Shown here: piece after piece, positions 4,992 to 44,561 of the stretch
How positions within the stretch are numbered: position 1 is the stretch's first letter
How the letters are laid out: every line of letters starts with the position of its first letter
From: a virus
Taxonomy: Duplodnaviria; Heunggongvirae; Uroviricota; Caudoviricetes
Length of the DNA stretch: 64,000 nt
Reading direction: 5' to 3' (one strand)
Virus record (IMG/VR): IMGVR_UViG_3300032167_000002
Location: 216,286 to 280,285 of that record
Notes under the pieces: model-generated
Database searches by the model: none
The model's input: the letters and a program-made list of their open reading frames with translations, nothing else
What the model was told of the DNA's origin: nothing
Made by a program: the position numbers and the translations under genes

Positions 4992-5300
4992 ATATTTAGT
5001 TGCCATTTTGGGATGGGTATTCCCCGGTTACATGAGTCCATGGCTAGACCCGGATACTTCTCGCTTGCATCTGCCGTCGTACTTTTGGTCCCACCCAAGG
5101 TATACGAGATTCTACCTTTCTGTGTTGATATAACACATATGTAAGGTGAGAAGATGATCGAAGTCCCGGACCAGCTGCTACCTGCGTCAACTTGATGAGA
5201 GCTTCTCAGAAATGGATCTTATTCTCAAGTACTTCACCCTCGAGGCATTAGCAGAATGTCGAGTCATTTCTCTTGAGGAGAGTTTTCACATTTCCTTTAC

Positions 5301-5340
5301 CTTACATATATATTATATCATATTTTTTTATAAAAATCAA
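5301..5340 (-). promoter_or_regulatory. AT-rich early promoter copy
   Basis: Same 40-bp consensus; lies inside the tRNA array. Confidence 0.6.
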
Positions 5341-5366
5341 ATAAGCACTTTTGCCCTTGATTTTTA

Positions 5367-5420
5367 TTTTGCCAAGACGGAATTTGACATACGCTGCTCT
5401 ATCCAGCTGAGCTACGCCCC
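5367..5420 (-). ncRNA. tRNA 5'-half-like fragment with no T-arm following
   Basis: Sequence GGGGCGTAGCTCAGCTGGATAGAGC; a GC hairpin GGGACCTTCGGGTCCC lies just upstream on the minus strand. Confidence 0.25.
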
Positions 5421-5477
5421 TCATATCAGGGACCCGAAGGTCCCCTTAGTAGTTCACCTACGCCACCTTGCCAGGTG

Positions 5478-5540
5478 ATGGGAGGGACGGTTGGACTCGA
5501 ACCAACGACCTGCGGCACCACAAGCTCGTCATAATTGCTG
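5478..5540 (-). ncRNA. tRNA 3'-half-like fragment (T-arm, acceptor 3' strand and CCA) with no matching 5' half
   Basis: T-arm GTTGGTTCGAGTCCAAC, acceptor 3' strand CGTCCCT, then CCCA. Confidence 0.25.
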
Positions 5541-5611
5541 TTACCGTCTTTTTTACAATGGAAAAGGTTGTATGGAGAAAGAAAGCAATCCGTGCATATC
5601 ACTTTCTTTAC

Positions 5612-5651
5612 CTTACATATATATTATAACATATTTTTTTTGAAAAATCAA
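5612..5651 (-). promoter_or_regulatory. AT-rich early promoter copy
   Basis: Same consensus. Confidence 0.6.
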
Positions 5652-5662
5652 GAAAGATTTTT

Positions 5663-6058
5663 TTATTCAGCAGGATTTTCAGAAGCCTCAGTCAAAAATG
5701 CGCCGACCTTATCAATCTCGTCTTCGAACATCATCTGCTCGTAACCAACGACTTTTACGGTCTCCACGATCCCAGGATTCTCTTCGCTGTCGCTGAACTG
5801 TAATCCTTCCGGAAGCACGCCGCCGCAAATATCATCGGTCAGATCGCTCCAATCCTCATACAGATAAAAAGGATTGACGACGCCGTCTTCCGCAGCGGTC
5901 TTCACCACTTCATCGATCTCGAATACGCCACCACAACAGGAGCAAATTACCTCATCACGGTATGCGATACCACACAGCCAATCTCCCGGATTTTCCGGGT
6001 CGGCAAAAACAACTTGCTTTGGTTTATCGAAGTAATATCGTTTTTCCATCGCTATCAT
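5663..6058 (-). CDS. Hypothetical acidic early protein (131 aa)
   Basis: ORF with upstream AT-rich promoter and Shine-Dalgarno-like AAAGGAAAGG; starts MIAMEKRYYF. Confidence 0.6.
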   Translation of the reverse strand: MIAMEKRYYFDKPKQVVFADPENPGDWLCGIAYRDEVICSCCGGVFEIDEVVKTAAEDGVVNPFYLYEDWSDLTDDICGGVLPEGLQFSDSEENPGIVETVKVVGYEQMMFEDEIDKVGAFLTEASENPAE

Positions 6059-6073
6059 TTCCTTTCCTTTATC

Positions 6074-6111
6074 TTACATAAATATTATAACATATTTTTT
6101 TATAAAAATCA
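6074..6111 (-). promoter_or_regulatory. AT-rich early promoter copy driving 5663..6058
   Basis: Consensus followed on the minus strand by AAAGGAAAGG then ATG. Confidence 0.6.
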
Positions 6112-6249
6112 AGAAAGACTTTTTAATGGCGATAGTGTCGCTCCGAACGACATCTTTCATTGAGTGTTTCACCCTACAAAGGACTACTCGTTCAATTACT
6201 TCCTCCTCGATCCACGGAGGTGGTTTTACCTTAAACTAACTACCGGTGG

Positions 6250-6321
6250 CAGGGGAGTAGGGATTCGAACCCCAATACACAGTTTTGGAGACTGTAGTCC
6301 TAGCCGTTAGACGACTCCCCT
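6250..6321 (-). tRNA. tRNA-Trp (CCA)
   Basis: Perfect acceptor AGGGGAG/CTCCCCT with CCA, anticodon stem ACAGT/ACTGT around loop CTCCAAA, T-arm TGGGGTTCGAATCCCTA. Confidence 0.7.
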
Positions 6322-6340
6322 ATATTTATCTTTCATTCTT

Positions 6341-6378
6341 TACATATATATTATATCATATTTTTTTATAAAAATCAA
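6341..6378 (-). promoter_or_regulatory. AT-rich early promoter copy upstream of tRNA-Trp
   Basis: Same consensus. Confidence 0.55.
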
Positions 6379-6452
6379 ATGCGTAAAAAATGGGGAATGT
6401 AATTATTCTAAAAATTACATTCCCCATATTGAATAGATTCGCCCAGCCGATC

Positions 6453-6788
6453 TTATAGGTCAAGCATCTTCATCAGATCATTGACTCTCGCGCGCTCTTC
6501 AGGTGAAATCTCTGCAGGCTGATAAGCACCAGCCGCAACCACCACATTGGGTGTATCATCTTCAAAATTGAAGTCGCCGGTCACGGGGGCCGCACTTACT
6601 TCAACGGGGACTTTAGGGCAGGTCAAAGAAATGGCGATCTGAACGGTTTCACCACCATCATTAGCCCATACATAAATTTTCTTATCGTATTCACCGATAT
6701 AATTATCTCCAAAAGCCTGTGCAATTCGCTTCTGGACTTCGATCTTTGCATTAGCACCCTTTGCCATTTCATTTTTCTCCTTTATCAC
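6453..6788 (-). CDS. Hypothetical protein (111 aa)
   Basis: ORF; overlaps the upstream gene start by ATGA. Confidence 0.55.
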   Translation of the reverse strand: MIKEKNEMAKGANAKIEVQKRIAQAFGDNYIGEYDKKIYVWANDGGETVQIAISLTCPKVPVEVSAAPVTGDFNFEDDTPNVVVAAGAYQPAEISPEERARVNDLMKMLDL

Positions 6789-8047
6789 TTATATTGTTCG
6801 TAACAATGAGGACACACCATTGCATCATCCCCATCTTCATATGTTATATAATTTGCATCTTCTTTGAAATATGCACTGCCGCAACTATCACAGACAAAAC
6901 ATCTTTCTTGGAAACAGCTGTCACATACGGGTTCATCATATCGACCGACATATGGAGCATCGTCTAAATAGATGCGTCGACCGCAACAAGAGCATGAGCC
7001 GTATACATCATTTTCTTCATACCCATATTCCATTTCACAATCATCGCAGCGCATTGTTTCAGGATTCCGAACGACAGCCTGGCCGCAGTGCAAACAAGTG
7101 ATTTCACCGCCTACAACAATTGGATTATGTCTCAGTCGTTCGGGACTTTCATAGCACCAAGTATCATAAACAGCATAGTATGGAAATTCGTAACAAGTGG
7201 AACAAAGAATATCATTGTAATTCATTGCTCCTGGACCCTGTTTCACTACATCATGCAATCCGACTAATTGATTATTGAAAACGATATACTTATCATCAAG
7301 AGGTACAGGTTCTGTATCATATGCAGCATCATAAGGCACATAACCATTGACATAATCAGCTCGCCAATTATTATACCTAAATCGACTATATCCTCCAAAA
7401 GGATTATCGGAAGGCTGTTGCATTAGATTATTATAAATATTGAGGACTTGCGTAATACCATCAAATGAAGAGAATGGATACTGGCGTCCCGCAAACATAA
7501 TCTTATCATCTTCAGCAGTATGAATCAACATACGCCATTTCTTCGAGTTCCATTTCACTTCTGGACCGAAGCCCGCAAGAATAACATCATCTGCGCCTTT
7601 GAGATATACCATAAATGTGGTAGTATCAACCATATAGCTTAAATTGCCAGCTCGATATTCTCCATCGAGAGCGTGACAACTGCGCCAGTTATATGTATTC
7701 TCACTACTACTCAGAAAATCGAGCGGATGAACGGAGAAACACAAAGTACCAACAACCTTATTCTCTTGGATAAGAATACTTGCCATATCTTGCAGATTAC
7801 GCAATACTTTCTTATCATCCTCAAAAAACTTGAAAGCCTTGATGAGCTTCATACCTTCTGGAATCTGTCTACCAGTAGTATTAGAAACTCGATTATCAAA
7901 AAATGAGTCTAAATTTTCATCAATAAAGTGCGCCAAATCGGGATTATGATATGTATCATTTACCTGATTCGCAAACTCCATAATGCGATATTTTTTCGTT
8001 TGAGAGTCCAAATGGAACTCAATAGGATTGGGCCATTCATAAATCAA
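6785..8047 (-). CDS. Large Cys-rich (multi-CxxC) early protein, paralog of 10716..12473
   Basis: 420-aa ORF; shares the segment LCFSVHPLDF...KWNSKKWRMLI with the 585-aa protein. Confidence 0.6.
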   Translation of the reverse strand: MIYEWPNPIEFHLDSQTKKYRIMEFANQVNDTYHNPDLAHFIDENLDSFFDNRVSNTTGRQIPEGMKLIKAFKFFEDDKKVLRNLQDMASILIQENKVVGTLCFSVHPLDFLSSSENTYNWRSCHALDGEYRAGNLSYMVDTTTFMVYLKGADDVILAGFGPEVKWNSKKWRMLIHTAEDDKIMFAGRQYPFSSFDGITQVLNIYNNLMQQPSDNPFGGYSRFRYNNWRADYVNGYVPYDAAYDTEPVPLDDKYIVFNNQLVGLHDVVKQGPGAMNYNDILCSTCYEFPYYAVYDTWCYESPERLRHNPIVVGGEITCLHCGQAVVRNPETMRCDDCEMEYGYEENDVYGSCSCCGRRIYLDDAPYVGRYDEPVCDSCFQERCFVCDSCGSAYFKEDANYITYEDGDDAMVCPHCYEQYK

Positions 8048-8142
8048 ACCGCCAAATCGCTCAATAAACTTTGCCTTAGACGATTCCCAAAGAGTAAATA
8101 AATCATCAATCTAAGGACTGGAAATACACTGAGAATAAGCGA

Positions 8143-9126
8143 TTACTTCTCGGAATTGGGATTTGATGTCTTCATACATACTTCTTTTTCGCACTCCTTG
8201 CATAATTTCGTAGTAGTCGGAGAAGCGATTTCGAAGGCCTCGCCGCACTCTTCGCACCACTCCACGTTGCCAACAATGCAATCGGGGCAGTAGTATTTTA
8301 CTTTTCCATCAATTCCCATCACGGGGAATAGTTCATATTCAGAATGAAGTTTCTTGCATTTGCTGCAATGCTGACCGAAGATACTCTGTCTCCACCAAGC
8401 AGAGGTAGAAGCAACCACTTCGTCATATACAAAATCTGGAATATCTTTCTCAGATAACATCTTTTTGACTTTACGGATAGTATCAAAAAGCGGATTGACA
8501 TTCAAAATTTCAGTATGACTATGTTCGTCTTCATAGCCAACAGACAGATTCACACCGACGATCTGCCATTCCGGCATCAAGAAACTAATGTCGGTAAAAG
8601 AACCCCATCGTTCACAGAACCCAAAACTCTCAACATAATCCACAAATTCGGGGCAATAACAATCATAGAACACACAATCATTTGTGCCTCGACGATCTAA
8701 CTGAATCATATATTTAAGTCCTGGAATCGGACAATCGGGATATTTATCACAGATAGCGCAAGCGCCTACGCCGCCATCTTCTTCACCTGTGGTGAGGATA
8801 ATGGACGGCCGCAAGCCCTCCTGCAATATTTTAATAATGGCGAAAATGCCAGCCCGGTCATCGGCACCAAGACCCTCCGGACTCCACAATACACCTTTAC
8901 GCTGGTCATAATATAAATCAGATACAGGAGTTTTGAATACAGTATCCATATGAGCGACCAAGGCAATGGGAATATCTCCAATAGCAATAATGTAATCCTT
9001 TGTGATAATTACATTCTTGTCATACTTATCTTTGAGATATTGAGACATCGCTCGAACCATTTCTTTCTCAGTCAGAGATACTAATCGTTCAAATAGTCTA
9101 TAATCTTTTTCACTCAAGACTCGCAC
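8143..9126 (-). CDS. M20/M42-type metallopeptidase-like protein with C-terminal zinc-ribbon region
   Basis: Motifs ALVAHMDTV, GADDRAGI and TGEEDGGVGA, plus C-terminal CxxC pairs. Confidence 0.45.
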   Translation of the reverse strand: MRVLSEKDYRLFERLVSLTEKEMVRAMSQYLKDKYDKNVIITKDYIIAIGDIPIALVAHMDTVFKTPVSDLYYDQRKGVLWSPEGLGADDRAGIFAIIKILQEGLRPSIILTTGEEDGGVGACAICDKYPDCPIPGLKYMIQLDRRGTNDCVFYDCYCPEFVDYVESFGFCERWGSFTDISFLMPEWQIVGVNLSVGYEDEHSHTEILNVNPLFDTIRKVKKMLSEKDIPDFVYDEVVASTSAWWRQSIFGQHCSKCKKLHSEYELFPVMGIDGKVKYYCPDCIVGNVEWCEECGEAFEIASPTTTKLCKECEKEVCMKTSNPNSEK

Positions 9127-9145
9127 AAAGTTTCCTCCTTTTATT

Positions 9146-9185
9146 TCTTATATTATATTATACCATTTTTTTTTATAAAAATCAA
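9146..9185 (-). promoter_or_regulatory. AT-rich early promoter copy driving 8143..9126
   Basis: Same consensus. Confidence 0.55.
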
Positions 9186-9991
9186 TCTTTATCTTCTTGG
9201 TTGCGGCGAAGCTTCTCTTTACGCACATTGTCGGCGAAGCGGAAGGCGCTCTCGCACAAACGGCACCCTGAGGTAGACCAGCACCGCTGGCCGCAATCCA
9301 TTCGAGCTTCTCCCAGCTCTTCTGGAATTGCTCTGTTGTCTACATTGAAATTCAGGTTTTGAATCAATAAGTTCAGGTTGCCAGGCCATGTTTGATTTTC
9401 CTTGTAAACATGAAGCAATACTTCTTCTTGCTTCAAATCTACATTTTCAAATTCAAAACATTGTACGCGGGTAGAATACAACTTTGCATCTTCTGGACGC
9501 ACCCATTGACCGCGTAATCCAGTGCCTACTCCCTGGGCGGCCAAATATGAAGGCTTTGCATTATTGACTACCATACGCACAGGACACTGATCGGTACTAC
9601 CGTCATAATAGGTATTATTAAACACCTGATCTAAATCAAAGCTCAAAGGTGGACCAACCATCACATATGAAGGATCCAAATCCATAATCATACCTAATTC
9701 ATAGAATGAGGTAATGGGATAAGGCCAATACCATTTGATATTGTGCTCTTGGAAATCCTTGAAGCGGTCAAGTCTGTGAGAAGCGATGTAAAATTCACTA
9801 AACTTCTCACTATACATTTCCCAGGTAGACCACTCATATTCAGCATCTCCTGGCAATTCCAAAATAATTACTTTATCGGGTAACTTCTCAACAAAGTCGA
9901 GAATGCGGTCCCGATCGGCATATGCAACCTTGATTTCATCAGCTCGTTTGAGAACTGAATAAGGTTGTCTACCAGATACACAGTAACGCAT
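9182..9991 (-). CDS. Hypothetical protein (269 aa)
   Basis: ORF with upstream promoter. Confidence 0.55.
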   Translation of the reverse strand: MRYCVSGRQPYSVLKRADEIKVAYADRDRILDFVEKLPDKVIILELPGDAEYEWSTWEMYSEKFSEFYIASHRLDRFKDFQEHNIKWYWPYPITSFYELGMIMDLDPSYVMVGPPLSFDLDQVFNNTYYDGSTDQCPVRMVVNNAKPSYLAAQGVGTGLRGQWVRPEDAKLYSTRVQCFEFENVDLKQEEVLLHVYKENQTWPGNLNLLIQNLNFNVDNRAIPEELGEARMDCGQRCWSTSGCRLCESAFRFADNVRKEKLRRNQEDKD

Positions 9992-10000
9992 ATAATCACA

Positions 10001-10040
10001 CTCCTTTATTATATTATAACATTTTTTTTCAAGTTTTTCA
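10001..10040 (-). promoter_or_regulatory. Degenerate AT-rich promoter (TTGAAA-N18-TATAAT) driving 9182..9991
   Basis: Reads GTTGAAAAACTTGAAAAAAAATGTTATAAT on the minus strand. Confidence 0.4.
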
Positions 10041-10144
10041 ACTTTTGGAACAAAAAATTTCTAAACCGATTTTCTATTTGGGCGTTTCGGACTTTGCGCG
10101 CGTCGCCGGCCGGAGCAGGCTTGTGGAACATTATGTTAGACAAT

Positions 10145-10182
10145 AAAAAAGCCGCCCCTCTCAGCGCTTGTGAGAGGGGCGG
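10145..10182 (-). terminator. Rho-independent terminator after 10205..10621
   Basis: Hairpin CCGCCCCTCTCA...TGAGAGGGGCGG followed by a T-run on the minus strand. Confidence 0.6.
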
Positions 10183-10204
10183 GAAGTATTACATCAGACC
10201 GAGA

Positions 10205-10621
10205 TTAGTCAGTCACAACGGCACGGTAGGCCTGAACCTTACGAGCCTTGGAAGTCTCGGTAGCGGGAATGGTGACCTGGGTCTTCTCGGCAACACCGGC
10301 TTCGACCAGCTTACCCAGACGGTAGGTAACCTTGGATACGGTAGCGTCGGGATTCACGCCGGCGACAGTAGCGGCGATATCGGCGATGACCTGGTACTCA
10401 TCGGTCAGAGCGTCCTCAACCTGGCCCATCAGAATATCGGCTTCAGCCTTCTTGGCAGCAGCGCGCTCCTTAGCCTTGGCAGCCTTGGCGTCCAGGGCGG
10501 CGATCTCCTTGTCGCAGAACGCAGTCACAGTGGCAGCATCGTACTTGCAGGAACCGGTCTCGAAAGTCTCCTTGATAGCTTCATACATTTCACGCTTGGT
10601 AATCTTTTCCATAGTTTGCAC
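10205..10621 (-). CDS. Hypothetical Ala/Lys-rich helical protein (138 aa)
   Basis: ORF flanked by a promoter and a strong terminator; GC-rich codons. Confidence 0.6.
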   Translation of the reverse strand: MQTMEKITKREMYEAIKETFETGSCKYDAATVTAFCDKEIAALDAKAAKAKERAAAKKAEADILMGQVEDALTDEYQVIADIAATVAGVNPDATVSKVTYRLGKLVEAGVAEKTQVTIPATETSKARKVQAYRAVVTD

Positions 10622-10678
10622 CTATACCTTTCAAAAATTCTTTTTTTATTTTTTTTCTGCAAGGTTTTTCTCTCTTTA

Positions 10679-10719
10679 CCTTACATATATATTATAACAT
10701 ATTTTTTTTGAAAAATCAA
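10679..10719 (-). promoter_or_regulatory. AT-rich early promoter copy driving 10205..10621
   Basis: Same consensus. Confidence 0.6.
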
Positions 10720-12473
10720 TCAATGTACTGCCGAATCAAGGCAATCCTCTCTTCGATGCTCTTTGCATCTCTGATTTTGGTGAGTACATTGAAGACATCG
10801 TCGGGAAGGTCTCCACGACTAAGTCCCTCATCATTGATATTTTCAATTCGGGCAACGACTCTAATGCGACCCCACATATCGGCAGTTTCTTTCAACTCGC
10901 CGAGAGTAACCTCATAGTCTTCGGGGCGACGCATACAACAGTCACACATCGGGATTTTATAAGTCCAGTTATAACAAACCAGATCTTCGGGGCACTTACC
11001 TGCGGGAATCAGCTCGATAAATACATTGTTGATGTGCTCCACTCGGTCTCCGCAGACTTCACATTCGTGCAGTTCGTGTGAATAACAATATTCACAGTAG
11101 TTGCGGTCAGTATCTGCCGCATAGTAGGGTTCTCCATAATGCCAGTCACCACATTTGGCACACTGCCACATACCATTACAGTCGCGGCAAGTGGTCCAGC
11201 TGGATTCGACATCTTGACTGGGAATAATGTCGCCGCAGGAAGTACACACGGCAGGTCCGCACAGATCAATACTCAGATCAGTGCCATCCCAGTTGCTCTT
11301 CATAAAGCCCATCCGCAAATCATAAATGTCGTTATACATATAACCACCCATATACAGGTTGAAACGCACACGACGATTGCCGATGGTATTGGTATTCTGG
11401 TTGCTAATCTGGACGCTCTCCTCATCATAGGGGCCGTAGCTCATATAAGGAGTGCCAGAGAAATCGGTGCCGGCCGCAAGATCTCTGATCCATCTAAGTG
11501 CGGTGCCCTGCACCACATCATTGAAGTATGGATACTGCTTGTTGCCGAGAACGAGTTCGGGGGTAACAATGATTAACTGACGCCAGCGTTTATTGTTCCA
11601 CTTATCGTCAGCGTTGCAAATACACATATCTTCTTTCGCCTCAATATAGGCGATGATGACACTTTCAGAGTTCATCATTTCGATAGTGCCAAGGCGGTAA
11701 TCACCCGCCTCTTCCATCCAGCTCATACAGGAGCTCCAGCCGCACTCATTGTCGGACATAGTGATAAAGTCCAGCGGATGGATACTCAGACACAGATTGC
11801 CACGAACGGTCTTCTGGTTCAATGCCAGAGAATGGGCTCGGCGGAATGACTCATAGCCATCAAATTCTTTCAACGGCTTGTCACTACCGCAATGGCATTT
11901 ACCGGGCTGGCGGTACAGATCCCAGTAACCGCAATCCTCACAGTAGTACATCTTGACGGAAAAATCCAAAGCAGAGCAAATCTTGCCAAGCATCTTGATA
12001 GCCTTGGCACCAGAATTGATTTGCAGAGGATGTCCATTCTTGGTAAACTGACTCGGAATTACGATGGGATCGCCGTCATATACATTTCTGACGAGCATAG
12101 AGGTATCATTGACGAAACGCTTCAGTTGATAGCGCAGTTCAAAAGACATATCGTAATGATTCTCGATGAAAGCGATATACTCACGGCGGAAAGTCAGAGT
12201 AGGAACATCTGCACTCCGACGCAGGATATCATCCATTTCCTCTTCGAGGTCGTCGGTATTTTTGGTGAAGGAGATTTCTCTCTTGAGAATAAACTTCTCA
12301 CCGAACATTTTGTAGAAGGGTGCCTTGGCGGTCGCCCAATACCGGAGGAAGTAGTCCATACGGTTGCGATTGATTACGCAATAGTCGGTCTCACAATCAC
12401 CGCCGCCATACCAGGCAATATAGCGGTGAATCAAATCCTTATCTTCTTCCGGAAGTCTTGCCAATAAATCCAT
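10716..12473 (-). CDS. Large Cys-rich early protein (585 aa), paralog of 6785..8047
   Basis: ORF; many CxxC pairs; shares conserved core LCLSIHPLDF...KWNNKRWRQLI. Confidence 0.6.
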   Translation of the reverse strand: MDLLARLPEEDKDLIHRYIAWYGGGDCETDYCVINRNRMDYFLRYWATAKAPFYKMFGEKFILKREISFTKNTDDLEEEMDDILRRSADVPTLTFRREYIAFIENHYDMSFELRYQLKRFVNDTSMLVRNVYDGDPIVIPSQFTKNGHPLQINSGAKAIKMLGKICSALDFSVKMYYCEDCGYWDLYRQPGKCHCGSDKPLKEFDGYESFRRAHSLALNQKTVRGNLCLSIHPLDFITMSDNECGWSSCMSWMEEAGDYRLGTIEMMNSESVIIAYIEAKEDMCICNADDKWNNKRWRQLIIVTPELVLGNKQYPYFNDVVQGTALRWIRDLAAGTDFSGTPYMSYGPYDEESVQISNQNTNTIGNRRVRFNLYMGGYMYNDIYDLRMGFMKSNWDGTDLSIDLCGPAVCTSCGDIIPSQDVESSWTTCRDCNGMWQCAKCGDWHYGEPYYAADTDRNYCEYCYSHELHECEVCGDRVEHINNVFIELIPAGKCPEDLVCYNWTYKIPMCDCCMRRPEDYEVTLGELKETADMWGRIRVVARIENINDEGLSRGDLPDDVFNVLTKIRDAKSIEERIALIRQYID

Positions 12474-14861: not shown

Positions 14862-14865
14862 TGTC

Positions 14866-16998: not shown

Positions 16999-16999
16999 A

Positions 17000-38760: not shown

Positions 38761-38805
38761 CAAATTCGGGATTTTGTGGGATGATTATTTTGTTGAAATT
38801 GCCTA

Positions 38806-38834
38806 TTGACAAATTGCTGGGGCTGTGGTATAAT
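38806..38834 (+). promoter_or_regulatory. Conserved plus-strand antisense promoter, copy 3
   Basis: ATTGACAAATTGCTGGGGCTGTGGTATAAT. Confidence 0.5.
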
Positions 38835-38909
38835 GGAAATTCGCGCCCATGACAATCGTGGGCGCGCGGCCGAAAATTCAATAGAAAAAGCGAGGGTTTG
38901 ACCCCTCGC

Positions 38910-39146
38910 TCAGTTGAAGATTTTGATTTCTGCGTGACACGGCTCAACGATTTCGGTCGGCTCAATGCCGTAGATACTGCCCTCGGACAGGCTGACCGCA
39001 TTTACAAAGCCGTCGCACTCATCGCAACCGCACTCTTCAATTTTCAGCATGAAGCAGAGGTAAGTAGGAGACCAAAAGGTCTGCCCCTTACTTATCTCGC
39101 TGAAGCGGATACCGCGCTCTTGGCGCTGGTCGAGTATCTTCACCAT
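38910..39146 (-). CDS. Hypothetical protein (78 aa)
   Basis: ORF. Confidence 0.45.
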   Translation of the reverse strand: MVKILDQRQERGIRFSEISKGQTFWSPTYLCFMLKIEECGCDECDGFVNAVSLSEGSIYGIEPTEIVEPCHAEIKIFN

Positions 39147-39436
39147 TGTTCTTCCTCCTTCTTCTGTTTCTTCAGCAGGAGAACTACCCGTTCAAGTGCC
39201 ATCCGCACTTCATCACGGCAGGGTGCGTCTGCGTCGAGATAGCAGACCACATTCTCCAAAAGGGAGTTAGCCTCACCAACGAGGTCAACCCCGTACTTCT
39301 TGAACACAACCGCATCCCTTTCGGTATAAATCTCAAGGGGGTCGCCCTCTTTGATTTTCAGAGTTCTGCGGATTTCCTTGGGGATAACCACTCTGCCGAG
39401 GTCATCCACTCTACGAATGATACCAGTTGCTTTCAT
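39140..39436 (-). CDS. AbrB/MazE (SpoVT-AbrB) family DNA-binding protein
   Basis: GIIRRVDDLGRVVIPKEIRRTLKIKEGD. Confidence 0.7.
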   Translation of the reverse strand: MKATGIIRRVDDLGRVVIPKEIRRTLKIKEGDPLEIYTERDAVVFKKYGVDLVGEANSLLENVVCYLDADAPCRDEVRMALERVVLLLKKQKKEEEQW

Positions 39437-39492
39437 CTTCATCATTTCCTTTCGTTTTTGTACCTTGATTATAGCATAGAATTGGGGATTTG

Positions 39493-39771
39493 TCAATCCC
39501 CAATTTCACATTTTTCTACGAAATCGCTTGGCACGATGTAGTCCATTAAATCAATTTCGCCTGCGGTGGTTTTGGTCAATGGCAGTTTAGAGTTGGGGAA
39601 CTCTTCGAAAATTACATCGAGATACATCTTGACCTGTCCGCACAGATACTTGAAGCGGTCGAGCCGTTCTGTCATTCGGTCTTCTGTGGCGGTTAGCAGA
39701 CCTGCCAACTGGGCTTGGCTCATTTCTCCCAGTTTATCCAGTAGGTCTGCATAGCGGACTTCATTCATCAT
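39493..39771 (-). CDS. Hypothetical protein (92 aa)
   Basis: ATGA overlap with the next gene. Confidence 0.45.
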   Translation of the reverse strand: MMNEVRYADLLDKLGEMSQAQLAGLLTATEDRMTERLDRFKYLCGQVKMYLDVIFEEFPNSKLPLTKTTAGEIDLMDYIVPSDFVEKCEIGD

Positions 39772-39920
39772 TCTTTATCACCTCTCTTGAACTTTTGGCG
39801 GTTGTACTTCTTACCGCTTTCGACTTTGCTACCTCTGCGAGTGAAGATAAGCCATTGCTGTAATTCTTCACCAGTTTTCTTGAAGGCTCTGCGGTCGACT
39901 TTCTTATTCTTCTTAGCCAT
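39768..39920 (-). CDS. Small basic protein (50 aa)
   Basis: MAKKNKKVDRRAFKK... Confidence 0.35.
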   Translation of the reverse strand: MAKKNKKVDRRAFKKTGEELQQWLIFTRRGSKVESGKKYNRQKFKRGDKE

Positions 39921-40240
39921 TTTCAATCACTCCTTGTTCTTTGTACTTGTATTATACCACAACATTTACTATTTGTCAAGGACTTTTTTAGTCCCAAACA
40001 AAAGTATTTATCAGCTTGCCTTCGCCATCAAATTCCAGTTCCAGTTCTGCGTTGGGGTCAAGCAGAGTATCGACAGGGATGTGAATGCTTTTGGATGTGG
40101 GGAAATCGTAGATTTCTACATCTGCTCTTACTCTTGCCAGTGCTTTCTTAATGATTTCAAATTCAGTCATTGCTCTGTACCTCTTTCTTTTTTGTACCTT
40201 AATTATAACATGGGTTGGGGGTTTTGTCAACCCCCATTTT

Positions 40241-40549
40241 TTACATTTTCAGAAGAAATGCGTATTTCTTTTCGTTGCGGACAACAACCTTTTTCAGACC
40301 AGTAGGAACATTGCCGTTGAAGATTGCGGTCAGCTTCTTGATGGTAGCCATGTAGCCAGTTACCACTGTTCCATCATCTGCCCCCCGCACAAGAATAATG
40401 CCAGTGTCGGTGATGGTGTAGATGTGGCTGGGAGACCGAGGGTCGGGGATTTCGTAGGCAAACTCATTGTAGCCGATGTGGGTCATGCAAGCAACCAGTC
40501 GGTCCAGTCGCTCAACTCTTGCGTGGTAGCTCATTTTCATAGTAGTCAT
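40241..40549 (-). CDS. Hypothetical protein (102 aa)
   Basis: ORF. Confidence 0.45.
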   Translation of the reverse strand: MTTMKMSYHARVERLDRLVACMTHIGYNEFAYEIPDPRSPSHIYTITDTGIILVRGADDGTVVTGYMATIKKLTAIFNGNVPTGLKKVVVRNEKKYAFLLKM

Positions 40550-40826
40550 TTTATTTACCCCCTTATTTCATCCACCATCTTTTGGAGATGGTCACACAGC
40601 AGTTGTTCTTTACTTCGACTTTATACTTCTCTTTGCGGAAGTGGTTTGCTACATACTCGGCATTGTCATCATTGTCCGTGCAGTAGATTGCGGTGCGTTG
40701 CTCACGCAGTTGCTTGTAAATGTTCTGTAAAGTCTTGTACATGGTATTCATTTCCTTTCCTTTTTGTACCTTAATTGTATCACAGATGTTTTATTTTGTC
40801 AAGAGTTCTTTTTGGAAACTGGCAAT

Positions 40827-41027
40827 TTATTTTGCCAGTTTCCAGAGGATGTAACTCTCACCCTGTACGAAGTTATTCACTCCGATACCAGTGATGACAC
40901 CCGCCTTTTTCAACTCATCAAGCAGGTTGATGAGGGAGAAGCGATTGACCTGCAGGTACATCGCAATCTCACGCAGGCGAAGTCCGTTGGGATGGTGGGC
41001 GAGGAGTTCTCTAATCTGTTCTTTCAT
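40827..41027 (-). CDS. Winged-helix transcription regulator-like protein (start trimmed)
   Basis: GLRLREIAMYLQVNRFSLINLLDELKKAGVI. Confidence 0.5.
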   Translation of the reverse strand: MKEQIRELLAHHPNGLRLREIAMYLQVNRFSLINLLDELKKAGVITGIGVNNFVQGESYILWKLAK

Positions 41028-41187
41028 GGTAATCAATTCCTTTCTTGTTTGTATCTGTATTATAGCACAGGTTTCGGGATTTGTCAATACCTTTTTATAA
41101 ATTATTTTGCAGAATTTTATTTTTCTGTAGGTTTTATTTAGCGCAAATAACGCGCGCCAGATCCGTGGGCGCGCGTAGCAAAAAGGC

Positions 41188-41496
41188 TTAGCAGTACGCT
41201 AAGCCCATAGTCTTCCAGCAAAGGACGCTTATCTGATTGTGTGCTCTACCAATGGACATTGCCTCTCTCTTGGTGTTTACTCGGTAGCTGTGGTCGATGT
41301 AGTACACGCCATCACTGTACCATACACCGCAGTTGCCCTTCATCATACGCACTGCCTTGATGCACTCTTCTGCTGTGTGTGCTTCTACACCATAGTCAGC
41401 GACCTGCCAGCCGCTCTTGTATGTGATGACTTTGCCTGCCTTAATGGTCAAGCCTTCATTGTTAGCGAGCTTCTTGATTGTTCTTACATTGATCAT
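41188..41496 (-). CDS. Hypothetical protein (102 aa)
   Basis: ORF. Confidence 0.45.
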   Translation of the reverse strand: MINVRTIKKLANNEGLTIKAGKVITYKSGWQVADYGVEAHTAEECIKAVRMMKGNCGVWYSDGVYYIDHSYRVNTKREAMSIGRAHNQISVLCWKTMGLAYC

Positions 41497-41576
41497 TGTG
41501 TCTTACCTCTCTCTCTTTGTGTCTTTATTATAACACACAAAGATTTATTTGTCAAGCATTTTTTTTATTTATTTAC

Positions 41577-41699
41577 TAAAATAATTGTAGTAATTGTGGC
41601 AATAATAAAAAGCGCTACCAGACCAATCAAAGTCCAGCCAAGCCAAGCGGGACAAGTAGTTCCTTCGTAAACAAGTTCATTCATCCAGTAAGCATTCAT
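41577..41699 (-). CDS. 40-aa membrane peptide
   Basis: MNAYWMNELVYEGTTCPAWLGWTLIGLVALFIIATITTIILVNK. Confidence 0.35.
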
Positions 41700-42535
41700 T
41701 GTGTTTCTCTCCTCTCTCTTTGTACCTTTATTATAGCACAAGAGTGATTATTTGTCAAGCTTTTTTTTATTATTTATTCAATGACTTGTACTATCTCACA
41801 GTGGCAAGCCTTTACTGCACAACCATTGATCACCAATGTATTGTGTCTGCCAGAAGGATAGTATTGCACATACTCTCTCTCTACGATGTGCCAGCCTGCG
41901 CCAATGCGCTTGGCTGTGTAGTCTGTGGTGTACTTGTATCTTGCGTAAGTCTTCATTGTCTTGTGTCCTTTCTGTGGGGATTAATTCCACTGTCTGCTGT
42001 CTTGGTAATCTCTCACTGCATCCCAGATTTTATCATAGCTGTAATTGGCAGGTTCTCTTGCACCATCTGCGTTCTCTGCCCACTGTCTACCAGTAGTGAT
42101 GACCTTACCATTCCATCTCTTCTTCTGTGCCTTGTGTTCTCTTTCAATCTCTGCCTGCCATTCGTACATTTTGTGTACCTCTCTCTCTTCTTTGTATCTG
42201 TATTATAGCACAAAGACAGCGAGTTGTCAAGAGGTTTTGGGAAATTTTTTTATTTATTTTCTTCGTCATTTTGCACAAAAATTTTTTCGTAAGCAGATTA
42301 TTTATGCAAACTACGGCCTCGCCGCCTGTCAGCGGCTCGCTGATTGTGTGGGGGTGGAGGCCTTCACCAGCGTTTTCTCAGAAATTTCACAGACTATAGA
42401 CTTTGTGTTTTTCCTCAGATAGAAAACATAAACCGGGGGTGTATTTCGGGAAAAAAATTTTTTTATTTGGTCAAATTGTTTTTGTCTGGGCATAACAATC
42501 CCAGAATCGATTTTAGATTTCGGATTACGGGCAAA

Positions 42536-42577
42536 ATAAAACCGATAGGCCATTTCGACCTATCGGTAATTTTTTTT
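42536..42577. terminator. Bidirectional rho-independent terminator
   Basis: AAAACCGATAGG-CCATTTCGA-CCTATCGGT then T8. Confidence 0.65.
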
Positions 42578-43151
42578 ATCGGATGCTCGCATTAGTTACC
42601 GTATCACTACTTCCTACGTACTTCTCGACCATACCAATGATTCTATCTAAATCAACTTTATAATTATGATATGTATCTGTACTGATTGTTCCAGTACATG
42701 CAGTGGAAATGGTTGGATCATAAGCCAATTTATCACTTACTAAATTATCAATCGCTGTATTACCATCACAGCTAATTGAAATTGTGTATGGACTATATGG
42801 CTATGCAGTAGTTTCCAATGCTGCAACTTTATCGGCCGGGTTCACATACTTAAATGTAGCGTCCTCAGTCCAACGATCGGAAGACCGGGTCGCCGCAAAG
42901 TAATGCCAAACATATCCTGCGCCATCTTCTGCCGTGCCCCAGTAGTCAGTTTCAAAATAAACATCATCAGGTAACGGCCAACCAGTACCCCATGCCACGA
43001 CTTCAGTCTCTTGGACTTTATCAGTATCCACTACCGCCCATAATGTAGGCCATCCATCTTGCGTGCCGATGTACAGAACCTCAATGATATATTCTGCAAT
43101 TGTAATTGTTTGACCATCTCTTGGAAGTTTATACTTATAAATAGTTCTCAT
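42576..43151 (-). CDS. Hypothetical protein with one in-frame TAG (read-through of the track ORF 42801..43151)
   Basis: ...ALETTA-TAG-PYSPYTISI...NASIR then TAA. Confidence 0.5.
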
Positions 43152-43378
43152 TTTTTTTCATCCTCAGCTTCTTCTCCTGGCACTGGAATATGTTGAGTTA
43201 CACACATAAACCACTTACCATCAACAAAAGTAGTATAATAATCCATATCTTCTCCAAGGGCAATACCAAATTTTGCACGAATATGTGCAGGTAATGCAAT
43301 ACGACTTGCACTATCAATTTTATAAGTTTTACCCTCTGGAATTAACTATGCATTATCAATCCATTTACTTTGTGGCAT
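43148..43378 (-). CDS. AbrB/MazE-like protein with in-frame TAG
   Basis: MPQSKWIDNA-TAG-LIPEGKTYKIDSASRIALPAHIRAKFGI; TGA stop overlaps the next ATG. Confidence 0.5.
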
Positions 43379-43673
43379 TTAACATACACCCCTTTTCAAA
43401 ATCATATTTGTGGCAAAACATTGTACATTGACAATCATCTGATATTTTTTTACAAGGAACATAATCATCTAAGAGATGATGGATGTGCGGACACCGGTCA
43501 ATGAATCGGCGGAACCATTCATATCCATATAAATCAAAAATACGCTGTGCTTTGTAAAAATCTCTATCAATGCGATACTATTCTGTCATTGGATATTCTG
43601 CGGCCACCATGCGCTCACGCGACTCTTCCCACATATGCTCTACAGTCAATAAAATACTTATCCATTTATCCAT
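43365..43673 (-). CDS. Cys-rich hypothetical protein with in-frame TAG
   Basis: MDKWISILL...YPMTE-TAG-YRIDRDFY...; TAA stop. Confidence 0.45.
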
Positions 43674-43865
43674 GCAATCACCTTTTCTTTTCTAATATGC
43701 GGCGGCCAGTAGATCGGATAGACCAGTTCATCGTAGAACTCAACGAGGTTCATAATCTCTTCTGCGAGTTCCCATTCAGAGATATCTTCAGGATAACAAT
43801 ATACATGATATTCTTTTTCTTTTATTGTATGTGGAAAATATTCTCCAATTTCTATATATGCTTTT

Positions 43866-44093
43866 TTAACCTGGTCCATTTTCATCCCATCCTTCTGGTA
43901 AGAAATAATTAAGAATAGCTTCAAGGACATTGGCAATGGTAAAAATGGGTCCACCAATTATAAAAATGATACCAACAATTAATTGTTCGCTTGGCTTTAA
44001 ATCTTTACAATATGGTGCATAGTCAATCATTACCAAGAGTGACATTGCAGTCCACAGTATTATAATAATTATTCCACTGATTTCCAAAACCAA
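43866..44093 (-). CDS. Small membrane protein (75 aa)
   Basis: Two transmembrane helices. Confidence 0.45.
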   Translation of the reverse strand: MVLEISGIIIIILWTAMSLLVMIDYAPYCKDLKPSEQLIVGIIFIIGGPIFTIANVLEAILNYFLPEGWDENGPG

Positions 44094-44497
44094 TCATCCT
44101 CCCTTACTGCATAAACTAATGCATTTTTGATTATTACAGGTTTGAGAAGCTCTTCTAATTCTTCTTCTTCCAAATTTTCAATAAATTCTTTTCCATAATA
44201 ATCTTCCGGCTTATCTGTTGTAAGCATAAAAAATCCGATTATTTTCTTTTTTTCATATAGCGACCAATCAACAACTTTACCTTCGCTTGGTTGACCAAAT
44301 TTAACTTGTGCGATTACTGTTGCTGGATAATATTTTCCATCATAAGCTTCTTTCATTGCGCGAGGAGGTTTACCTTGTACTATATTTACTAGATTTTCCG
44401 TAACTACAAAGGTATTTTTTAGTACCTTTAATAACCAAAAAATAAATGCGGCCGCTCCGAGTAGTAGCACCGCGAGGATAGCTATAACAATGCCCAT
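44069..44497 (-). CDS. Membrane-anchored protein (142 aa), first gene of the minus operon
   Basis: N-terminal transmembrane helix; consensus promoter upstream. Confidence 0.5.
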   Translation of the reverse strand: MGIVIAILAVLLLGAAAFIFWLLKVLKNTFVVTENLVNIVQGKPPRAMKEAYDGKYYPATVIAQVKFGQPSEGKVVDWSLYEKKKIIGFFMLTTDKPEDYYGKEFIENLEEEELEELLKPVIIKNALVYAVREDDWFWKSVE

Positions 44498-44532
44498 AGT
44501 CTATACTCTATTCCTTTCTTTTTTCTTATAAT

Positions 44533-44561
44533 TATTATACCAAAAAATTTTTTCGTTGTCA
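44533..44561 (-). promoter_or_regulatory. Consensus sigma70 promoter (minus), divergent from the late promoter
   Basis: TTGACAACGAAAAAATTTTTTGGTATAAT. Confidence 0.6.

Follow-up and report, generated by a model that had tools for sequence, protein, structure and literature searches.

Promoter families along the leftward genes

The leftward genes of this phage are served by promoters of two types that keep to separate blocks, which raises the question of whether the two types mark successive classes of expression. Within the 64,000-nucleotide stretch analysed here (the window), an earlier sequence-only reading had described mutually exclusive families, i.e., TTGATT-N17-TATAAT at 5200–26800 (family A) and textbook TTGACA-N17-TATAAT at 27200–44561 (family B), and had proposed either temporal separation or acquisition from different ancestors. 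When hexamer matches were counted with spacers of 15–19 nt (the 17-nt spacer being a feature of the families), TTGATT/TATAAT pairs occurred 17 times in the window (0.14 expected; 0 of 100 shuffles reached 17) and TTGACA/TATAAT pairs 30 times (0.11 expected). The 14 A copies (2303–23984) and about 35 B copies (27714–42230) of the minus strand showed zero interleaving, and 14 A and 30 B copies would segregate perfectly by chance with a probability of 1.7e-11. With motif counts this far above chance and segregation this complete, the two promoter types are real. The two non-overlapping regimes therefore stand, but the families number three: 26 exact TTGACA/TATAAT copies do lie within 27200–44561, whereas four copies previously taken as textbook members belong to a third family (family C). 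The absence of mixing likewise holds inside the window, but relatives carry a few AT-spacer promoters among their B copies, so that exclusivity is a tendency rather than a rule.

The earlier count of 16 A copies in 5200–26800 was about right, since this interval contains 13 minus-strand copies, two plus-strand A-like copies (20538 and 25407), a degenerate TTGAAA copy (–10 ending at 10013) and a hybrid with TTGACT and an A-type spacer (26776–26804). The consensus was also as previously written (TTGATTTTTATAAAAAAATATGwTATAAT followed by ATATATGTAAGrTAAAG). Family A is not limited to that interval, however, as one copy is situated at 2303–2331 and at least four more in the 7.8 kb past the left end, on a contig (L045) identical to window positions 1–12268. 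Neither does each copy precede a small gene: downstream genes range from 35 to 585 aa, and three copies (6350, 5312 and 2303) lead to tRNA genes.

Specifically, the minus-strand copy at 2303–2331 is followed by a 35-aa ORF (2161–2268), tRNA-Glu and further tRNAs, while that at 5312–5340 (–) has no ORF and extends through a leader of about 300 nt into tRNA-Asn (4916–4991). The copy at 5623–5651 (–) has a tiny ORF and tRNA-like remnants downstream, that at 6084–6112 (–) precedes gene 5663–6058 (131 aa), and that at 6350–6378 (–) is located directly before tRNA-Trp (6247–6321), with a terminator hairpin upstream (6390–6427). Family A promoters are thus interspersed in the minus-strand tRNA array (1–6321), of which 17–19 tRNA genes fall in the window and which totals 33 on the identical contig. 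Further minus-strand copies are located at 9157–9185 (genes 8143–9126, matching a peptidase-like PHROG, 6785–8047 and 6453–6767), 10691–10719 (gene 10205–10621), 12514–12542 (585-aa gene 10716–12473), 14416–14444 (genes from 14372 down to 12590), 14800–14828, 16971–16999, 18835–18863, 20459–20487 and 23956–23984, the last being the first promoter of block A and heading the operon from 23831 down to 20593. The degenerate copy (10013–10041, –; TTGAAA-N17-TGTTATAAT) precedes gene 9182–9991. Of the plus-strand A-like promoters, the one at 20538–20566 is antisense to operon 20593–23831, and the one at 25407–25435 lies in a low-GC island and is followed by GAAAAAATGA-type repeats.

The terminator–promoter cassettes seen earlier proved real. 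Six of the 14 A copies (6350, 12514, 14800, 16971, 18835 and 20459) have a strong hairpin (dG –15 to –27 kcal/mol) on the upstream side of the –35, at a distance of 0–12 nt, and in 6 of 14 the T-rich –35 is at the same time the U-tract of the preceding terminator. At 14800 the promoter is fused to the hairpin at 14829–14862, with TTGATTTTT as the U-tract, and equivalent fusions occur at 16971 (hairpin 17000–17032) and 20459 (hairpin 20490–20514). At 12514 the hairpin (dG –20.9) stands 2 nt ahead of the –35, and at 18835 (dG –15.2) it ends 2 nt before it. Block A as a whole extends from 24 kb to past the left end, i.e., over at least 30 kb, with a cassette roughly every 1.5 kb, and its organization is polycistronic and terminator-insulated, with larger genes, running into the tRNA array.

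Block B is built differently. Its 35 minus-strand promoters (27714–42230) have –10 hexamers ending at 27714, 28397, 28546, 29653, 29752, 29851, 30277, 30813, 31437, 31968, 32251, 32939, 33451, 33709, 33827, 33937, 34750, 35543, 35747, 36383, 36606, 37001, 37478, 38161, 38461, 38578, 38718, 39468, 39951, 40202, 40774, 41059, 41527, 41730 and 42202. Family B totals about 38–40 copies when –10 variants (TACAAT, TAGAAT or TATACT) and –35 variants (TTGCAT, TTGCAA or TTGACT) are included, which amounts to about one promoter per 400 bp, or about 40 in 15 kb (42.2 down to 27.2 kb). The genes in between are small (median 76 aa) and mostly without known function. Tandem triplets of B promoters with short non-coding leaders occur, as do antisense promoters, and some –35 boxes are situated in the loop of opposite-strand terminators. 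Three B copies are oppositely oriented, on the plus strand, one in each copy of a composite repeat of ~190 bp: 29939–29967, which is followed by a GC hairpin and may yield an antisense or small RNA, 34025–34054 and 38806–38834.

Anatomy of the two main families

Family A is conserved over about 46 nt, with 85% mean pairwise identity from –35 to +17, and combines a TTGA –35, a 17-nt spacer holding the palindrome TTTTTATAAAAA, and a TRTGnTATAAT extended –10. Family B (A-tracts, cTTGACAAA, a 14-nt free spacer, TgTGcTAtAAT, 6 nt, ACAAA) carries the TG at –15/–14 in all copies and conserves only the polymerase contacts and the upstream A-tracts, so that spacer identity is 90% in A vs. 51% in B. The 17-nt spacer and the TG at –15/–14, common to all three families, suggest that they are sigma-A (sigma-70-type) promoters recognized by the host polymerase. 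Judged by its sequence, family A is a good sigma-A promoter that demands no phage factor for its recognition. Since it is predicted to be strong for the host polymerase alone, A and B could also fire together.

The families differ further in composition, with a spacer G+C of 0.08 in A vs. 0.43 in B and a discriminator G+C of 0.00 vs. 0.37. Moreover, the seventh base after the –10, i.e., the predicted start, is G in 9 of 14 A copies (A in four) and A in 25 of 30 B copies. The initiating nucleotide reportedly controls promoters in Firmicutes (Krasny and Gourse), and host physiology might set the timing with no phage factor at all if the all-A/T spacer and discriminator and +1 G of family A responded differently to supercoiling, GTP/ATP or (p)ppGpp than the GC-containing B promoters with their +1 A. 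We nevertheless regard this as improbable, because four A copies and the corresponding cassette of the related phage phAss-1 are predicted to start with A, and because composition alone demands no fixed spacer sequence.

Block boundaries and the late operon

Family C, with four copies and an A-tract/T-tract spacer, is found at the block boundaries and heading the late operon. Between blocks A and B lie a distinct low-GC island and a multi-promoter boundary region (24.0–26.9 kb), where the hybrid promoter (26776–26804, –; gene 26303–26740) is accompanied by a plus-strand C copy (TTGACAAATAAGAATTTTTTTGGTATAAT; 26822–26850) in tandem with a plus-strand A copy (26880–26908) that reads antisense into block B. 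At the other end, the C copy at 44534–44562 (–) is the first promoter of the leftward arm and serves four low-GC genes (44497 down to 42801), while a divergent C copy (44644–44672, +) heads the rightward, TAG-recoded late operon; the fourth (60567–60595, +) lies within the late region, before gene 60624–61154. Because this sigma-A-type family heads both early-side and late operons, promoter type does not simply map to time.

The late structural operon (44698–61154, +; TerL, portal and virion proteins) follows code 15: its genes contain 37 in-frame TAG codons, read as glutamine, while the genes of both leftward blocks follow the standard code. Its first gene (44698–45753, +) encodes a sigma-like protein of 351 aa, and codons 150, 190 and 212 of this gene are in-frame TAGs. 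This protein, instead of host sigma-A, could in principle recognize family A, which we consider very unlikely. Family A carries canonical sigma-A hexamers and drives standard-code genes and tRNAs, whereas a protein whose gene has three in-frame TAGs and heads the late operon should act late; moreover, phAss-1 has an equivalent cassette, yet tblastn found no homolog of the sigma-like gene in it.

Conservation in related phages

The window phage is a TAG-to-Gln recoded relative of phAss-1, which has the same layout, as do about 100 metagenomic contigs. This bears on the earlier proposal that the blocks derive from different ancestral phages, each with its own promoter style. The sharply different styles and the island and multi-promoter region between them would fit such an origin, but it is contradicted by the presence of both blocks in the same order across the clade (phAss-1, about 25 A-carrying contigs and 80 sigma-like-gene loci), by similar gene G+C (0.45 and 0.48 for A and B, the outlier being the late region at 0.27–0.48) and by GAAAGGAAatgA-type ribosome-binding sites common to both blocks, so that we give it hardly any credence. 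At the 80 sigma-like-gene loci, B promoters lie to the left and a C-type promoter directly before the gene, and sigma-A promoters are almost absent from the 10 kb rightward.

The families are conserved in different ways. The exact 35-nt A core was found at 39 loci in about 25 viral contigs, with flanks that do not align to the window, and proteins encoded beside near-identical cores are only 25–50% identical. Across 92 unique A copies, identity to the window consensus is 78% at the 34 non-hexamer positions, and pairwise identity is 70%, compared with 29–32% for the flanking sequence and a base-composition expectation of 41%. Orthologous B promoters before an HD-domain gene (in L032), by contrast, keep the hexamers but not the spacer. 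In phAss-1, B-like promoters occur only within about 9 kb at the ends of the genome, and an AT-spacer cassette (TTGACAtAAAAAAATTTTTaTGgTATAAT plus ATATATAGAAA, with a predicted start at A) precedes genes for tRNAs (among them Sup-CTA), ribonucleotide reductase, ThyX and NAD salvage.

Such near-identity beside divergent proteins, together with the terminator-plus-promoter composition and predicted host competence of family A, might also mean that promoter type has no temporal meaning. Both families would then be constitutive host promoters, A being a mobile cassette for module shuffling of the promoter-early stem-loop (PeSL) type, maintained by recombination or gene conversion among copies and co-infecting relatives, and B an older, diverged set. 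Three contigs (L010, L017 and L025) indeed carry cassette-bounded modules in another order and combination than the window. However, the tRNA-region indels of three contigs 95–97% identical to the window (L043, L044 and L046) fall away from cassettes, and L010 holds genes of two window cassettes inside one, indicating that shuffling is not strictly cassette-bounded. Recombination also leaves unexplained the clade-wide block separation of A and B, and why phAss-1 retains another cassette, no less rigid, in the corresponding functional region. We therefore rate the mobile-cassette explanation as a minority possibility, albeit the most serious of the alternatives.

A proposed expression programme

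Taken together, the leftward genes probably follow an early/middle timing programme of the classical kind, and a temporal reading of the two regimes is plausible. The explanation we favour by a modest degree is that B is immediate-early and A delayed-early or middle, both transcribed by the host polymerase. Block A functions are mostly without assignment, and hence it is the tRNA genes and phAss-1 that speak for the term middle.

The source is an uncultivated siphovirus-like gut phage of roughly 120–190 kb, distantly akin to phAss-1 and Schiekvirus-like Enterococcus phages; cultured relatives sharing its synteny include Enterococcus phages VRE9_3 and EF1. Its leftward arm begins at the divergent junction (44.5–44.7 kb) and crosses two successive regimes. 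Block B would act as a host-takeover module in which about 40 strong promoters, made up of UP-like A-tracts, TTGACAAA, a spacer free of constraint, TRTGnTATAAT and a starting A, each express a tiny gene or two, or else a short non-coding RNA. In the A cassette (about 46 nt), the T-rich –35 and spacer also serve as U-tract for the intrinsic terminator before it, and transcription is predicted to begin at G or A, behind a discriminator consisting of A/T throughout. That family A is so extremely conserved may then reflect stacked constraints, i.e., terminator tail, promoter, possible operator and initial transcribed sequence, to which homogenisation by recombination may add, as in the PeSL cassettes of T4. 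Family C marks the boundaries and would transcribe the late operon, with TAG decoding as an additional gate on expression.

Discrimination between A and B might depend on a host-polymerase modifier or a spacer-binding protein made early; since both classes have sigma-A hexamers, one of these is expected instead of an alternative sigma factor. Candidates for this factor are two conserved winged-helix paralogs of block B. The 124-aa protein at 29201–29575 (–) is encoded below tandem promoters (29851, 29752 and 29653), and its 68% identical paralog (33021–33395, –) likewise has tandem promoters upstream (33937, 33827 and 33709) as well as a proximal B copy (33451). These early 124-aa paralogs have a winged-helix fold and are strongly conserved. 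No phage factor for family A was identified and no regulator could be linked to A or B, the TTTGTGCAAA box was not enriched window-wide, and no homologs of MotA, AsiA, gp39 or gp76 were detected among the proteins scanned.

Comparison with known systems

Among the closest known systems are phAss-1 with the Caudoviricetes code 15 clade (Babkin et al. 2023, PMC10607447) and the recoding-as-timer model (Borges et al., bioRxiv 10.1101/2021.08.26.457843); promoters are mentioned in neither paper. Both phages have late-gene TAG codons, a standard-code early region, a large tRNA array, related portal proteins (41% identity) and, as our scan of phAss-1 revealed, a two-tier promoter layout. The second-tier cassette of phAss-1 nevertheless has TTGACA and an A7T5 spacer, unlike the TTGATT and T5ATA7 of the window phage. 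Furthermore, phAss-1 carries Sup-CTA, whereas no suppressor tRNA was found among the 33 tRNAs of the array in the available part of the window phage, and tblastn detected no sigma-like gene in phAss-1.

PeSL cassettes of T4-like phages (Arbiol et al. 2010, PMC2839356; Comeau et al. 2014, PMC4122927) resemble family A in that an early-type sigma-70 promoter is joined to an intrinsic terminator. Their near-identical copies likewise punctuate regions of small, variable genes, are conserved beyond their neighbouring genes and accompany modules differently arranged in relatives. Lineage (Firmicutes-type siphovirus-like and TAG-recoding) and sequence are unrelated, however, only 6 of 14 A copies bear the stem-loop, A also heads tRNA and large genes, and cassette recombination is no more than possible in the window phage.

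Block B recalls another arrangement, with dense consensus host promoters before one or two tiny genes each, and its phAss-1 equivalent lies at the ends of the linearised genome. The host-takeover modules of Bacillus phage SPO1 and of T5 are of this kind, with dense, strong consensus host promoters before tiny genes. Block B differs in being denser (about 40 promoters in 15 kb), in its tandem triplets with short non-coding leaders and antisense promoters, and in –35 boxes within the loop of opposite-strand terminators. Finally, T4 separates early from middle transcription by sigma appropriation via AsiA and MotA, and Thermus phage P23-45 switches to extended –10 promoters via gp39 and gp76. In both, as in the window phage, the classes have a host-type –10 in common and diverge in what lies upstream, and the discrimination by small early phage proteins acting on the host polymerase is the likeness we propose for the window phage, although here family A keeps its –35 (TTGA) at canonical spacing and the extended –10 is present in both A and B.

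Promoter families and their distribution

Two mutually exclusive promoter families had been proposed from the sequence alone, and both were found to be real: TTGATT-N15-19-TATAAT (family A) occurs 17 times in the window versus 0.14 expected, and TTGACA-N15-19-TATAAT (family B) 30 times versus 0.11 expected. In a looser scan (–10 box TAyAAT, TAGAAT or TATACT; –35 box any TTGnnn; TG required at –15/–14), family A comprised 14 minus-strand copies from 2303 to 23984, next to three A-like plus-strand copies (20538, 25407 and 26880) and a degenerate copy of which the –10 box ends at 10013. Family B comprised about 35 minus-strand copies from 27714 to 42230 and three plus-strand copies (29939, 34025 and 38806), and a minus-strand hybrid promoter (26776–26804) couples TTGACT to an A-type spacer. 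Four copies of the form TTGACAnnAAgAAAtTTTTTGGTATAAT, located at 26822 (plus), 44534 (minus), 44644 (plus) and 60567 (plus), had been folded into family B as a single "textbook" class, but constitute a separate third family (family C). On the minus strand, the A and B copies do not interleave at all (chance probability of 1.7e-11 for 14 + 30 items), and the claimed absence of mixing within the window thus holds. The left limit originally set for family A was too narrow, since a copy is present at 2303 and at least four more follow in the next 7.8 kb of L045, a related contig that is 100% identical to window positions 1–12268.

All three families carry sigma-A/sigma-70-type hexamers at a spacing within the 17 ± 1 nt expected of such promoters (TTGATT-17-TATAAT in family A, and TTGACA-17-TATAAT or TAyAAT in families B and C), and no family with foreign hexamers was found among them. 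A TGn motif precedes the –10 box (at –15/–14) in 13 of the 14 minus-strand A copies and in all listed B and C copies. Families A and B have the 17-nt spacer and a Gram-positive TRTGnTATAAT extended –10 box in common, but are otherwise unlike. Upstream of the –35 box, B copies display A-tracts (typically AAAAAGTTGAAAAAACCTC) and A copies no conserved element, while the –35 box itself is TTGACAAA in B and TTGATT in A. Spacer identity between copies is 51% in B versus 90% in A, with a spacer G+C content of 0.43 versus 0.08 and a discriminator G+C content of 0.37 versus 0.00, respectively. Pairwise identity from –35 to +17 amounts to 63% in B and 85% in A. Family B thus conserves solely the positions contacted by RNA polymerase. 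For family A, the proposed consensus (TTGATTTTTATAAAAAAATATGwTATAAT, then ATATATGTAAGrTAAAG) was borne out by the printed copies and their flanks. Read directly from the sequences, the A spacer contains a perfect palindrome (TTTTTATAAAAA), and the C spacers are AnTn palindromes. Moreover, in 6 of the 14 A copies a hairpin of –15 to –27 kcal/mol ends 0–12 nt before the –35 box, so that the TTGATTTTT run provides the U-tract of the terminator. The suggested fusion into terminator–promoter cassettes is therefore real in these six copies, but the promoter stands alone in the other eight.

Families A, B and C are thus all compatible with the host sigma-A factor, and their transcription by the host holoenzyme is predicted; for family A in particular, recognition by sigma-A is expected because of its –35 box at canonical spacing. 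A timing difference between A and B would then be expected to come from a polymerase modifier or a spacer-binding protein. The predicted start, being the seventh base after the –10 box, is A in 25 of 30 B copies; of the 14 A copies, nine have G there and four have A. That the families are discriminated physiologically, via supercoiling or the initiating nucleotide, seems quite improbable to us.

Genome layout and recoding

Megablast of the leftward gene blocks A and B, which carry the respective promoter families, yielded no nucleotide match among GenBank phages, tblastn with a 585-aa protein found nothing, and the ten largest standard-code ORFs had zero Pfam matches. The portal protein displays 41% identity to that of phage phAss-1, a member of the "Caudoviricetes code 15 clade" (PMC10607447), and has further matches in large siphoviruses infecting the Firmicutes genera Enterococcus, Lactococcus and Bacillus. 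Strains that are 95–100% identical to the window are present in several metagenome assemblies (ENA contigs ERZ13617401, ERZ28653727, ERZ27248314 and ERZ28593507, i.e., L043–L046; contigs of 30–185 kb).

When TAG is read as a sense codon, the plus-strand ORFs beyond 44.7 kb, otherwise fragmented, merge into full-length genes, including those for TerL, the portal and virion proteins; 17 plus-strand genes together carry 37 in-frame TAG codons. The TAG positions of the first of these genes, encoding a sigma-like protein, align with Q, Q/E and Q in its homologs, as is proper to code 15 (TAG to Gln). In blocks A and B, the minus-strand genes can be read intact in the standard code. The recoded, low-GC late genes lie to the right of a divergent junction at 44.5–44.7 kb, and leftward of it follow block B, a small plus-strand low-GC island (24.0–26.3 kb), block A and a tRNA array. 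Composition splits sharply as well, with a G+C content of 0.43–0.49 in the early arm (1–42000) versus 0.30–0.39 and an opposite GC skew in the recoded late arm (44000–64000).

Block A is polycistronic and terminator-insulated, and continues into the tRNA array, of which 17–19 of the 33 genes lie inside the window. The full array includes tRNA-Gln(UUG) and tRNA-Gln(CUG), but a suppressor tRNA(CUA) is absent among its 33 tRNAs in L043–L046, including the window-identical L045, so that no suppressor tRNA driven by family A was found in this array. An odd tRNA (4196–4269, minus strand), which ARAGORN cannot type and which has a 6-nt anticodon loop and a CUGUAGG region, is kept in all four of these close relatives. 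It was rejected as a suppressor since it has no CUA anticodon.

Block B and local elements

Block B carries approximately one promoter per 400 bp, with UP-like A-tracts, and its genes are short (median of 76 aa) and mostly of unknown function, except for an HD-domain protein, a 5′-nucleotidase-like protein and two winged-helix paralogs. It further contains tandem promoter triplets with short leaders starting GTCAAGAGGGGA, and a composite intergenic unit of ~190 bp in at least seven copies (~28535–28740, 29840–30060, 30800–31000, 32240–32440, 33925–34150, 36595–36790 and 38705–38925). This unit consists of a hairpin (GCCCGCG..CGCGGGCGGCCGAAAAT), an antisense promoter on the opposite strand (intact in three copies and decayed in the rest), a TTTGTGCAA box and a minus-strand promoter. 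Owing to this promoter density, the tiny genes, the A-tracts, the tandem triplets and the composite repeat, block B has the appearance of a host-takeover module of the classical kind.

The triplets form three arrays on the minus strand (29653–29880, 33709–33965 and 38461–38746), in which the promoters are spaced ~100–140 bp apart and the apparently non-coding transcripts begin GTCAAGAGGGGA or GCAATGAGGGG. Two of the three arrays lie upstream of the winged-helix paralogs, and similar units exist in phAss-1 (132.6–132.8 kb); their transcripts could be small RNAs, or the arrays could serve as polymerase sinks. In some B promoters, the –35 box is situated inside the loop of a G4-5...C4-5 hairpin (27729–27747, 31985–32000, 39479–39506 and 40216–40236, plus strand), which has the form of an intrinsic terminator of antisense transcripts because of the T-run that follows it on the opposite strand. 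Most copies of the TTTGTGCAAA box lie within block B and keep a constant distance to promoters, but its 11 occurrences in the window versus 8.9 expected do not amount to window-wide enrichment, and the box was rejected as an operator. A possible activator site near 24.03 kb, the direct repeat GGTAAGACA, was likewise discarded since it is not enriched.

Block B also encodes a 97-nt tRNA-like RNA (28436–28532, minus strand) with its own promoter (–10 box ending at 28546), which looks like a tmRNA reduced to its 5′ and 3′ ends, joined together (38.9 bits against Rfam RF00023, below the gathering score of 47; E-value of 1.3e-12). The RNA has a CCA end and the acceptor pair G3:U70 but lacks an mRNA-like domain, and might act as a decoy of the tRNA-like domain of tmRNA.

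The boundary between blocks A and B (26776–26950) holds four promoters within 130 bp, i.e., the minus-strand hybrid, a C and an A promoter on the plus strand, and the divergent partner of the hybrid, together with small GATC-centred palindromes (CCCGATCGGG and AAGCCGATCGGCTT). The plus-strand promoters aim antisense into block B, and the arrangement is kept in the relative L032. Next to this boundary, gene 26303–26740 showed a faint Pfam match to the C-terminal domain of phage G1 gp67 (E-value of 0.066), but a role as a sigma-A-binding inhibitor of UP-dependent promoters was dropped, the match being too weak and PHROGs giving no support. The plus-strand island at 24000–26300 contains iteron-like repeats of the GAAAAAATGA type (~25440–25500) and a gene (24430–25014) that carries four in-frame TAG codons and encodes a 194-aa HTH protein with weak DUF6291 and HTH matches; as its HTH matches were sub-threshold, it was not retained as a sigma factor.

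Conservation of the promoter families in related phages

The most informative evidence came from conservation elsewhere. A scan of phAss-1 also revealed two tiers of promoters. Its B-like promoters, with A-tracts, TTGACAA, a GC-rich free spacer and TGTGGTAyAAT, are confined to 127.6–135.4 kb and 0.3–0.8 kb, i.e., the ends of the linearised genome. Its rigid AT-spacer cassette (TTGACAtAAAAAAATTTTTaTGgTATAAT and ATATATAGAAAaTGAG) is present in ~25 copies from 55.8 to 125.8 kb, heading tRNA genes (including Sup-CTA) and genes for ribonucleotide reductase, ThyX and NAD salvage. One common layout was found in 80 loci around homologs of the sigma-like gene, gathered by means of an alignment of closer homologs: 5–19 B promoters within 10 kb leftward of the gene, a C-type or AT-spacer promoter directly ahead of it, and nearly no sigma-A-consensus promoter in the 10 kb of late genes rightward. 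As several relatives have one to three AT-spacer promoters among their B copies, segregation is a strong tendency across the clade and not a law. A separate ancestry of blocks A and B is, in our estimation, highly improbable. By analogy to the gene content of phAss-1, and to SPO1, T5 and T4, family B is somewhat more probably than otherwise the immediate-early class and family A a delayed-early or middle class.

The exact 35-nt core of family A was recovered at 39 loci from ~25 IMG/VR contigs of 118–190 kb, mostly with flanks that do not align to the window and with shared nearby genes encoding proteins of 25–50% identity. In 92 unique A copies, the 34 non-hexamer positions are 78% identical to the window consensus, and pairwise identity is 70%, whereas base composition predicts 41% and the flanks reach 29–32%. 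The retention of non-contact positions across these copies indicates that the whole cassette is either under strong constraint or homogenised, and more than recently duplicated within a single genome. In bacterial genomes, the core was found on phage-sized contigs only, in MAGs of implausibly mixed taxa (Methanobrevibacter, Treponema, Alistipes and many Clostridia). These matches were read as mis-binned phage contigs and lend no support to family A imitating a host promoter.

Family A might also be a mobile regulatory cassette like the PeSL cassettes of T4-like phages, a known model for terminator–promoter units (PMC2839356, PMC4122927), conserved by recombination rather than by function. Its composite anatomy and extreme conservation would fit such a cassette, as would the reordering of gene modules in relatives L010, L017 and L025. 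However, indels between near-identical strains lie away from the cassettes, in one relative a single cassette unites genes that belong to two cassettes in the window, and the block structure is not explained by recombination. As the sole explanation, this main rival is possible but doubtful, and it is as much complementary to as competing with the assignment of A and B to temporal classes.

The leftward small-gene block with a phrog_19455 winged-helix gene, followed by the sigma-like gene, phrog_3314 and TerL, is also syntenic in the cultured Enterococcus phage VRE9_3 (PP680569.1, 111599–137748; L149), which has AT-spacer promoters of the TTGATTTTT type as well. VRE9_3 could serve as an experimental model, and cultured Enterococcus phages with this synteny, EF1 among them, would make experiments feasible.

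Candidate regulators and a possible programme

The two winged-helix paralogs of block B (29201–29575 and 33021–33395) are the most visible candidate regulators of A/B timing. The former lies behind three tandem promoters, and the latter downstream of a similar triplet with its own proximal promoter at 33451. Their fold resembles that of the MarR, ArsR and PadR repressors, a gene in the corresponding block of Enterococcus phages shares their PHROG family, and all of the best 120 of 4384 metagenomic matches are homologs of at least 90% identity.

The rightward C promoter is followed first by gene 44698–45753, whose 351-aa product matches phrog_5767 "sigma factor" (E-value of 1.8e-50). Homologs of this product in phages of Enterococcus, Brevibacillus, Staphylococcus (SPbeta-like) and Clostridioides bear the annotation sigma factor or LuxR-type. 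This match and these annotations lend moderate support to the protein being sigma-like. It has an invariant C-terminal four-cysteine zinc ribbon, and its gene contains in-frame TAG codons at positions 150, 190 and 212 (0–7 among relatives). No homolog was found in phAss-1 by tblastn, Foldseek of the model against the PDB gave nothing significant, and a sequence profile search of the PDB nothing relevant. A search of the late intergenic regions and direct repeats for a late-specific promoter motif turned up two C copies alone and no other repeated motif. Gene position and recoding speak for a late role of the sigma-like protein rather than for recognition of family A, and we give very little credence to family A depending on it.

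In a more tentative and rather unlikely scenario, the promoter families would form the transcriptional layer of a three-step programme tied to the switch in genetic code. Host polymerase would fire family B first, yielding takeover proteins and the winged-helix regulators. A shift to the rigid A cassette, controlling the middle step, would then supply the tRNA array along with any function that makes TAG decoding possible. Only then could the sigma-like protein, with three TAG codons in its mRNA from the C promoter, be completed, and redirect or boost late transcription. If true, stop-codon recoding would gate a transcription factor besides structural proteins, and control of the code switch would rest with the invariant A cassette.

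Comparison with known systems

Stop-codon-recoding phages are abundant in human and animal guts, and their code change is thought to time late genes. On their transcription organisation nothing has been reported, with PMC10607447 and the paper on recoding as a timer (Borges et al.) making no mention of promoters. The window, phAss-1 and ~100 related contigs display a conserved and easily recognised promoter grammar, which defines candidate early, middle and late units, predicts transcription start sites, and points to two early winged-helix paralogs and an itself-recoded sigma-like protein as candidate regulators.

Temporal promoter classes and terminator–promoter cassettes are classical. The host-type hexamers of A, B and C set them apart from the SPO1 gp28 and gp33/34-type classes, in which middle and late hexamers are unlike those of the host sigma factor. 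In T4 middle promoters, dependent on MotA/AsiA, the –35 box is replaced by an activator box near –30, whereas family A keeps TTGA at –35 and a 17-nt spacer; no MotA or AsiA domains were detected in ~45 proteins scanned. New are their description in recoded gut phages, an abundant clade that has gone unstudied, the connection with a sigma-like gene that is itself recoded, and the unusual degree to which the A cassette stays rigid over deep divergence. Family A resembles PeSL in its many near-identical copies, conserved far above the flanking genes (85% pairwise in the window; the exact 35-mer in ~25 diverged contigs), although PeSL joins stem-loop and early promoter as one unit, and only 6 of the 14 A copies do so, with the promoter alone in 8. 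As a ~46-nt non-coding element that remains nearly unchanged while surrounding genes diverge to 25–50% protein identity, the A cassette carries the T4 idea of a mobile regulatory cassette over to an unrelated phage lineage.
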